This document shows positions 40,560-40,720 of a stretch of DNA of 64,000 nucleotides, one piece after another. A program made the translations under genes and the position numbers. Under the pieces are notes generated by a model. It saw only the letters and a program-made list of their open reading frames with translations, was not told the origin of the DNA and did no database searches. This DNA comes from Actinomycetes bacterium (GTDB lineage: Bacteria; Actinomycetota; Actinomycetes; S36-B12; GCA-2699445): NCBI GenBank assembly GCA_022599915.1, contig JAHZLH010000027.1, positions 73,813 through 137,812 of the forward strand, written 5' to 3'. Every line of letters starts with the position of its first letter. Positions within the stretch are counted from its first letter, which is position 1.

Positions 40560-40720
40560 TCCACTCCGCGTGCCTCGACGGTTGAAGCCGTTCATCTTCG
40601 TCAGGTGCTCCGGCTTCCCTCGCGGGTTACGGTTGCGGGTCAGCGCCGGATTTTCACCGGCTTCCCCTGAACATCGAAAATGTCCGATTGCCAAGAGAAT
40701 AGCCCACAATCCACTCATTA
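40560..40720 (-). promoter_or_regulatory. cobalamin (B12) riboswitch
   Basis: Minus strand 40667->40627 reads GGGGAAGCCGGTGAAAATCCGGCGCTGACCCGCAACCGTAA (class core). 40620->40600 reads AGGGAAGCCGGAGCACCTGAC (B12-box-like). It lies in the 5' leader of the 40486..38436 operon. The outer boundaries are approximate. Confidence 0.85.

Follow-up and report, generated by a model that had tools for sequence, protein, structure and literature searches.

The minus strand of the window, as we call the whole stretch of 64,000 nucleotides analysed here, carries a genuine and intact cobalamin riboswitch of class II architecture that is typical for its lineage. Taken together, the data are best explained by a class II corrinoid riboswitch that forms the leader of a two-gene operon and works as a ligand-dependent OFF switch by hiding the Shine-Dalgarno (SD) sequence, a reading of the whole that we hold to be likely. 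The features on which it is built are collected in Table 1.

Identification and anatomy of the riboswitch

To identify structured RNAs, the whole window was scanned with Rfam 15 at gathering thresholds, and the sole riboswitch match was RF01689 (AdoCbl-II) at 40680-40595 on the minus strand, with 43.4 bits against a gathering score of 36.5 bits (E = 4.3e-07 for the 64-kb window against 4227 families). The alignment spans the full model (positions 1-81), a repeat of the scan on the sub-region agrees, and the same locus is the best RF01689 match in the window's own genome. The original prediction of a cobalamin riboswitch had named RF00174 as the family to search with. This search was also passed, with 39.8 bits against a gathering score of 31.5 bits (E = 1.3e-8 per genome; G000:C23:114340-114518(-), window 40528-40706). 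The prediction of a cobalamin riboswitch therefore stands, while its choice of family does not, RF01689 (class II) providing the better fit. By the covariance models of both families, RF01689 and RF00174, the element belongs to the cobalamin riboswitch clan CL00101, and its identity as a cobalamin-clan RNA is confirmed as real and far beyond chance. It is a riboswitch of known type, detectable by standard Rfam-based annotation.

The individual sequence elements were found where they had been predicted. The core GGGGAAGCCGGTGAAAATCCGGCGCTGACCCGCAACCGTAA sits at 40667->40627 and the B12-box-like string AGGGAAGCCGGAGCACCTGAC at 40620->40600, both on the minus strand, and an ATG at 40486-40484 (-) is preceded by the SD GGGAGGGA at 40496-40489. 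The extra base that had been pointed out in the B12 box is real; it reflects a 4-nt J6/3 (AGCA), which is typical of class II, and RF01689 aligns here without an indel. The element is on the same strand as a signal-peptide gene starting at 40486 and lies 5' of it, consistent with its proposed placement as a 5' leader. In the window, each of the 34 base pairs of the model is canonical, and the anticipated four-way junction P3-P6 forms with canonical pairs, covaries in relatives and is accompanied by the conserved junction sequences and the B12 box. P6 bears an internal loop and a 3-bp GNRA hairpin, and J1/3 has 4 nt versus 7 in the RF01689 model, three positions of which are deleted.

Table 1. 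Features of the riboswitch, its leader and the associated genes. Positions are those of the window except where locus L059 is named
Feature	Position	Strand	Basis
Cobalamin riboswitch aptamer, class II architecture	40595..40680	-	RF01689 43.4 bits, pair checks, covariation
P1	40680-40675 with 40600-40595	-	RF01689 alignment and pair checks
J1/3, AUGU	40674-40671	-	RF01689 alignment
P3, UCAGG with CCUGA	40670-40666 with 40605-40601	-	pair checks
J3/4, GGAA	40665-40662	-	RF01689 alignment
P4, GCCGG with CCGGC; L4 UGAAAAU	40661-40657 with 40649-40645	-	pair checks
P5, 2 bp	U40642-A40634 and G40641-C40635	-	pair checks
L5, ACCCG	40640-40636	-	RF01689 alignment
P6, CCG with CGG	40632-40630 with 40612-40610	-	pair checks
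P6 extension, CCC-GCGA-GGG, 10 nt	40626-40617	-	pair checks
J6/3, AGCA	40609-40606	-	RF01689 alignment
B12 box, AGCCGGAGCACCUGAC	40615-40600	-	sequence
P13-like hairpin directly 3' of P1	40557..40589	-	kept in 27/27 aligned riboswitches, outer-stem covariation
Hairpin outer stem, GGCUUC with GGAGUC	40589-40584 with 40562-40557	-	4/6 pairs covary
Hairpin inner stem, CCG with CGG	40581-40579 with 40568-40566	-	compensatory U-A event in 2 relatives
Hairpin terminal loop, UCGAGGCACG, 10 nt		-	
Expression platform	40487..40556	-	constrained folding, terminator scan
Two anti-SD copies of GGAUCCC	40554-40541	-	constrained folding
GCCUCGA, possible anti-sequestor target	40509-40503	-	constrained folding
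SD, GGGAGGGA	40496-40489	-	sequence
First regulated gene, secreted 356-aa alpha/alpha-toroid-like protein, SCO2321 type	39416..40486	-	NF053823 204.5 bits, signal peptide
Second regulated gene, SCO2322-family protein	38436..39419	-	NF040672 150.7 bits vs cut-off 85
Divergent asd-cobU-cobT-cobS cluster	40777..44253	+	Pfam and NCBIfam matches
CbiQ/EcfT gene	L059 294-1553		ECF operon under second switch (locus L059 234-4038)
Fused double ECF ATPase	L059 1550-3178		ECF operon under second switch
ECF S component, PF12822	L059 3175-4038		ECF operon under second switch

Conservation and covariation in the order

To further explore the element, we asked how it is kept among related genomes. Of 40 relatives from the same order, 26 have a homologue of the first regulated protein, and the upstream 600 nt were taken for each of the 26 genes. 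On the gene's strand, a match to clan CL00101 was found upstream of every one of these SCO2321-family orthologues (26/26), 23 of them at or above the gathering score and 3 just below. The best-scoring Rfam family of these orthologous riboswitches (loci L033-L058) varies between RF01689, RF01482 and RF00174, indicating that the clan-level call is robust, that the family-level call is not, and that class labels taken from the best match are unreliable for this lineage. When the SCO2321-like protein was used as the sole query in the related-locus search no relatives were returned; a search with asd gave 68-74% identical Actinomycetota from many orders.

The 26 upstream sequences were used for a covariance model (R1) with a structure specified by the analyst. 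The second riboswitch of the window's genome, which is outside the training set, matches the full model with 84.5 bits and completes an alignment of 27 sequences, itself fitted to the model. Standard pairs make up 95.7% of the paired cells in the 27 sequences, and sliding the partner strand lowers pairing to 34-44%. Within this model-fitted alignment 19 pairs change on both sides versus 10.5 in shuffles, a number reached by 0 of 500 shuffles. The covarying pairs are found in P1 (7/7), P3 (3/5), the P6 extension (3/3) and the outer stem of the post-aptamer hairpin (4/6), with P4, P5 and P6 invariant across the 27 sequences. Each of the 41 genomes in the order sample (41/41) has between one and three copies of this riboswitch subtype, making it the standard B12 switch of the lineage.

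Class assignment

In class I cobalamin riboswitches a P2 module is combined with a large P6 extension, and in class II riboswitches a J1/3 segment with a small one (PMC7367189). In the window element the class I P2 module is absent, with just 4 nt (AUGU) between the covarying P1 and P3, and the large P6 extension (P7-P11) is absent as well, its place being taken by the 3-bp GNRA hairpin at 40626-40617. Lacking a P2 arm and a P7-P11 extension and having a 4-nt J1/3, the element is class II by the published definitions (PMC7367189). It shares with class I RF00174 the core GGGAA-CCGGUG-AA-CCGG-CUG-CCCGCAAC-GUAA and the B12 box, along with a score above the gathering threshold, but is unlike it in having neither the P2 arm nor the P6 extension of about 60 nt that caps the adenosyl pocket. 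T. tengcongensis 4GMA and E. coli btuB are examples of class I RF00174, and env8 (PDB 4FRN/4FRG) is the structural prototype of the class II cobalamin riboswitch RF01689.

Were the element nevertheless of class I, it would be RF00174-type and strictly AdoCbl-selective, with AUCGGA/UUCGAU (40687-40672) as P2 and a more distal P1. The RF00174 cut-off is indeed passed over 40706-40528, and AUCGGA does pair with UUCGAU in the free MFE fold. This hairpin, however, consumes the 5' strand of P1, where all seven pairs change on both sides, and the P6 extension in the window is a 10-nt hairpin. Furthermore, the RF00174 alignments of the relatives and of the second switch have a forced P1/P2 with many non-canonical pairs and 59-66 deleted P6-extension positions, a misfit that was read from the alignments of the relatives and the paralogue and that we infer from them for the window element. 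Because of these non-canonical pairs and deletions the class I reading is structurally poor despite its passing score, and we consider it very improbable.

Within class II, the features of class IIa (env8 type) are not seen: J1/3 has 4 nt with three model positions deleted, and P6 has an internal loop and a hairpin. An env8-type 5-nt T-loop (PMC6158498) is unlikely in a J1/3 that falls three positions short of the RF01689 consensus. The window element is like RF01689/env8 in its P1-J1/3-P3 arrangement, its P4 with a T-loop-type L4, its short P5 and P6 and its 4-nt J6/3, in lacking the P2 arm and the P7-P11 extension (definitions from PMC7367189), and in matching the full-length model above the gathering score. 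It is unlike them in a J1/3 of 4 rather than 7 nt, in a P6 with an internal loop and 3-bp GNRA hairpin in contrast to the plain loop of env8, and in its host, a high-GC actinobacterium instead of a marine metagenomic sequence. Features of class IIb (E. faecalis eut/RF01482 type) are present, namely the short J1/3, the P6 hairpin and GGAA (40665-40662), and J6/3 is AGCA without UCU; RF01482 is the best-scoring family for three of the orthologues. The M. tuberculosis ppe2 switch, which its authors regard as a novel IIb variant, likewise has GGAA in J3/4 and no UCU in J6/3 (PMC11260477). By its published description, it further resembles the window element in being actinobacterial, in its fused P1-P3 arm without P2 and in its truncated P6 extension (PMC11260477). 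The ppe2 switch is reported to be a compact translational OFF switch with a proposed kissing loop between a C-rich L5 and L13 (PMC11260477). It differs in controlling ppe2-cobQ-cobU, whereas the window switch precedes an SCO2321/SCO2322 pair, and no conserved uORF is evident in the window leader. With regard to ligand preference, class II riboswitches can be MeCbl-selective, AdoCbl-selective or non-selective (PMC6158498).

A conserved hairpin follows the aptamer

The P13-like hairpin is found outside every Rfam model, since RF00174 stops 7 nt after P1. It is kept in 27/27 aligned riboswitches, including the paralogue outside the training set, and its segment CCGUCGAGG is nearly invariant across the order; the inner stem shows one compensatory U-A event, in 2 relatives. 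By its position, the hairpin is likely the P13/L13 partner of a kissing loop. The GG of the loop (G40574, G40573), a candidate L13, can pair with CC of L5 (40638-40637) in 27/27 sequences, with both GG and CC invariant. A second register pairs CCG with CGG; it can form in 24-27 of the 27 sequences and competes with the inner stem. As both sides are invariant in both registers, covariation gives no means of choosing. For the metE switch of M. tuberculosis, a kissing loop between L5 CCC and L13 GG has been proven by compensatory mutation (PMC11260477), making the CC x GG register the better guess. An L5-L13 kissing loop is possible in the window element.

The invariant post-aptamer hairpin is the only point here that is mildly novel. 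A bolder proposal, and one that we regard as rather doubtful, is that the hairpin with CCGUCGAGG is an integral, unmodelled part of the actinobacterial class II sensor and defines a distinct subclass of extended aptamer. The loop may then do more than make a 2-bp kissing contact, for example by contacting the ligand or by serving as a shared switching strand. If this were true, the subclass would be reused with translational platforms in the window's genus and with terminator platforms elsewhere.

Pairing of CCGUC with the 3' strand of P1 (GACGG) was considered and rejected by eye, as it is not kept where P1 varies. On the minus strand at window 40576-40562, a GUG (40564) in the reading frame of the downstream gene comes 8 nt after the invariant GAGG of the hairpin loop. 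It may be an upstream start site; L033 and L034 have it, and L035 lacks it.

Expression platform and proposed mechanism

A terminator scan of the window leader on the minus strand identified no intrinsic terminator (hairpin plus U tract), which favours translational control. In constrained folding with the aptamer and P13 enforced, the probability that the SD is paired increased from 0.52 to 0.84, and the MFE structure paired GGGAUC (40492-40487), proximal to the SD and start, with GAUCCC (40547-40542). Without P13, CCGUCGAGGC paired with GCCUCGAG (about 40510-40502) and the SD kept a 4-bp local hairpin (P = 0.52). In the same-genus locus L035, an 8-bp GGAUUCCC:GGGAAUCC complement, with GGGAAUCC abutting the AUG, gives the same long-range helix with an added U:A, and in L033 and L034 a local hairpin over the SD is found instead of the long-range helix. 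On the constrained folding of the window leader, sequestration of the SD appears plausible. Against it, for L035 and L033 the SD was predicted to be paired in every modelled state, and constrained folding gave no switch there; the free fold of the window leader was likewise no more stable than shuffles (z = -0.41). The loop UCGAGG was tried as a general anti-terminator or anti-sequestor against downstream CCUCGA and rejected, its duplex energy having a z of ~0 across 27 loci. In the window, the loop-GCCUCGA pairing is matched by 12.5% of shuffles, and as an anti-sequestor pairing it is a possibility for the window alone.

Intrinsic-terminator-like hairpins with U tracts are located directly 3' of the aptamer and hairpin in L049 (482-502, plus strand), L053 (446-465, plus strand) and L054 (170-157, minus strand). 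With terminators in these distant relatives and none in the window's genus, the type of platform changes within one orthologous riboswitch family. A sigma-70 promoter scan found nothing. A TATTCT at window 40701-40696 (-) is a candidate actinobacterial -10 element (TANNNT) and would have transcription begin near 40689, some 9 nt ahead of P1; such a start would fit the short class II P1 and argue against the longer RF00174 span.

In the mechanism that we propose, a corrinoid bound in the P3-P6 junction would cause L5 (CCC) to dock on the GG in the terminal loop of the post-P1 hairpin. With the hairpin locked by this docking, the GAUCCC repeat would be available to GGGAUC at the SD and start codon, and their pairing would turn translation off. 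In the absence of ligand, CCGUCGAGGC of the hairpin could take GCCUCGA, immediately upstream of the SD, as its partner instead, with the SD only weakly paired. B12 sufficiency would in this way repress the surface corrinoid-capture pair, and the second copy of the switch, on another contig, would repress the matching ECF importer. We infer the B12-dependent OFF logic and the SD occlusion from the behaviour of the class and the anatomy of the element; actinobacterial B12 switches with similar features are translational OFF switches (PMC11260477).

The same aptamer could alternatively act through premature (Rho-dependent) transcription termination or mRNA decay rather than by blocking the ribosome-binding site directly. 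Rho or RNA degradation is often employed by translational switches as well (PMC6158498), the same-genus leaders fold with the SD paired in all states, and in the distant relatives L049, L053 and L054 the same aptamer and hairpin are joined to intrinsic terminators. The window leader, on the other hand, has no terminator-like hairpin with a U tract on its minus strand, and its anti-SD complement abutting the start codon is kept in L035 through the U:A insertion, making an output of this kind somewhat unlikely. That the usual ECF genes are missing downstream could also suggest decay of the operon and a decayed or constitutively folded relic with no regulation left. We give this scarcely any credence, as no helix is broken, the core is the same as in the relatives, the hairpin and the SD-complementary elements have been kept, and the ECF genes occur at another place in the genome, behind a second switch that is also intact.

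Regulated genes and the B12 regulon

The first regulated gene scores below the NF053823 cut-off of 300, at 204.5 bits, and has weak matches to SQHop_cyclase_C and Prenyltrans; a signal peptide is visible in its translation. Its stop is overlapped by 4 nt by the start of the second gene, whose SCO2322-family product has a signal peptide, a Ser/Pro-rich linker and a C-terminal membrane anchor. The two exported proteins probably help to capture B12. A literature search on SCO2321-SCO2325 found nothing relevant.

On the other side of the element, asd-cobU-cobT-cobS form a tight same-strand cluster with a 4-nt overlap at both the asd/cobU and the cobT/cobS junction. There is no Rfam match on the plus strand at this cluster, leaving it without a riboswitch of its own, and the cluster is outside the control of the minus-strand riboswitch. 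With cobU, cobT and cobS, the genome is equipped for the late steps of B12 assembly. The two ORFs drawn across the element had been suspected of being artefacts, and both proved spurious. In ORF 40570..41799 (+), asd has been given too long an N-terminus: its domains begin at residue 2 of the protein starting at 40777, and neither the extension nor the antisense ORF 40386..41231 (-) has a Pfam match. Two tRNA genes lie elsewhere in the window, at 46628-46700 and 46775-46846 (-) (RF00005, 60.4 and 58.0 bits).

The only other cobalamin switch in the genome, at C41:35633-35788 (+), is of the same subtype (RF00174, 40.7 bits) and precedes the ECF operon listed in Table 1. This operon probably encodes the importer that partners the SCO2321/SCO2322 pair; in this genome the two stand apart. 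The arrangement resembles the SCO2321-SCO2325-type operons of Actinomycetota (secreted toroid, SCO2322 protein, ECF importer) in the same first two gene families and the same riboswitch subtype. It differs in that the ECF T-A-S genes are on contig C41 with a second switch of their own, and not in one operon.

While the element adds no new principle as a riboswitch, it corrects the annotation of this region, where the two overlying ORFs are spurious and asd starts at 40777, and it assigns to the B12 regulon two exported proteins that are uncharacterised. This regulon is divided here between two switch copies of a single subtype, one at the surface pair and the other at the ECF importer, and the split provides clean, separable reporters for testing the proposed function in corrinoid capture.
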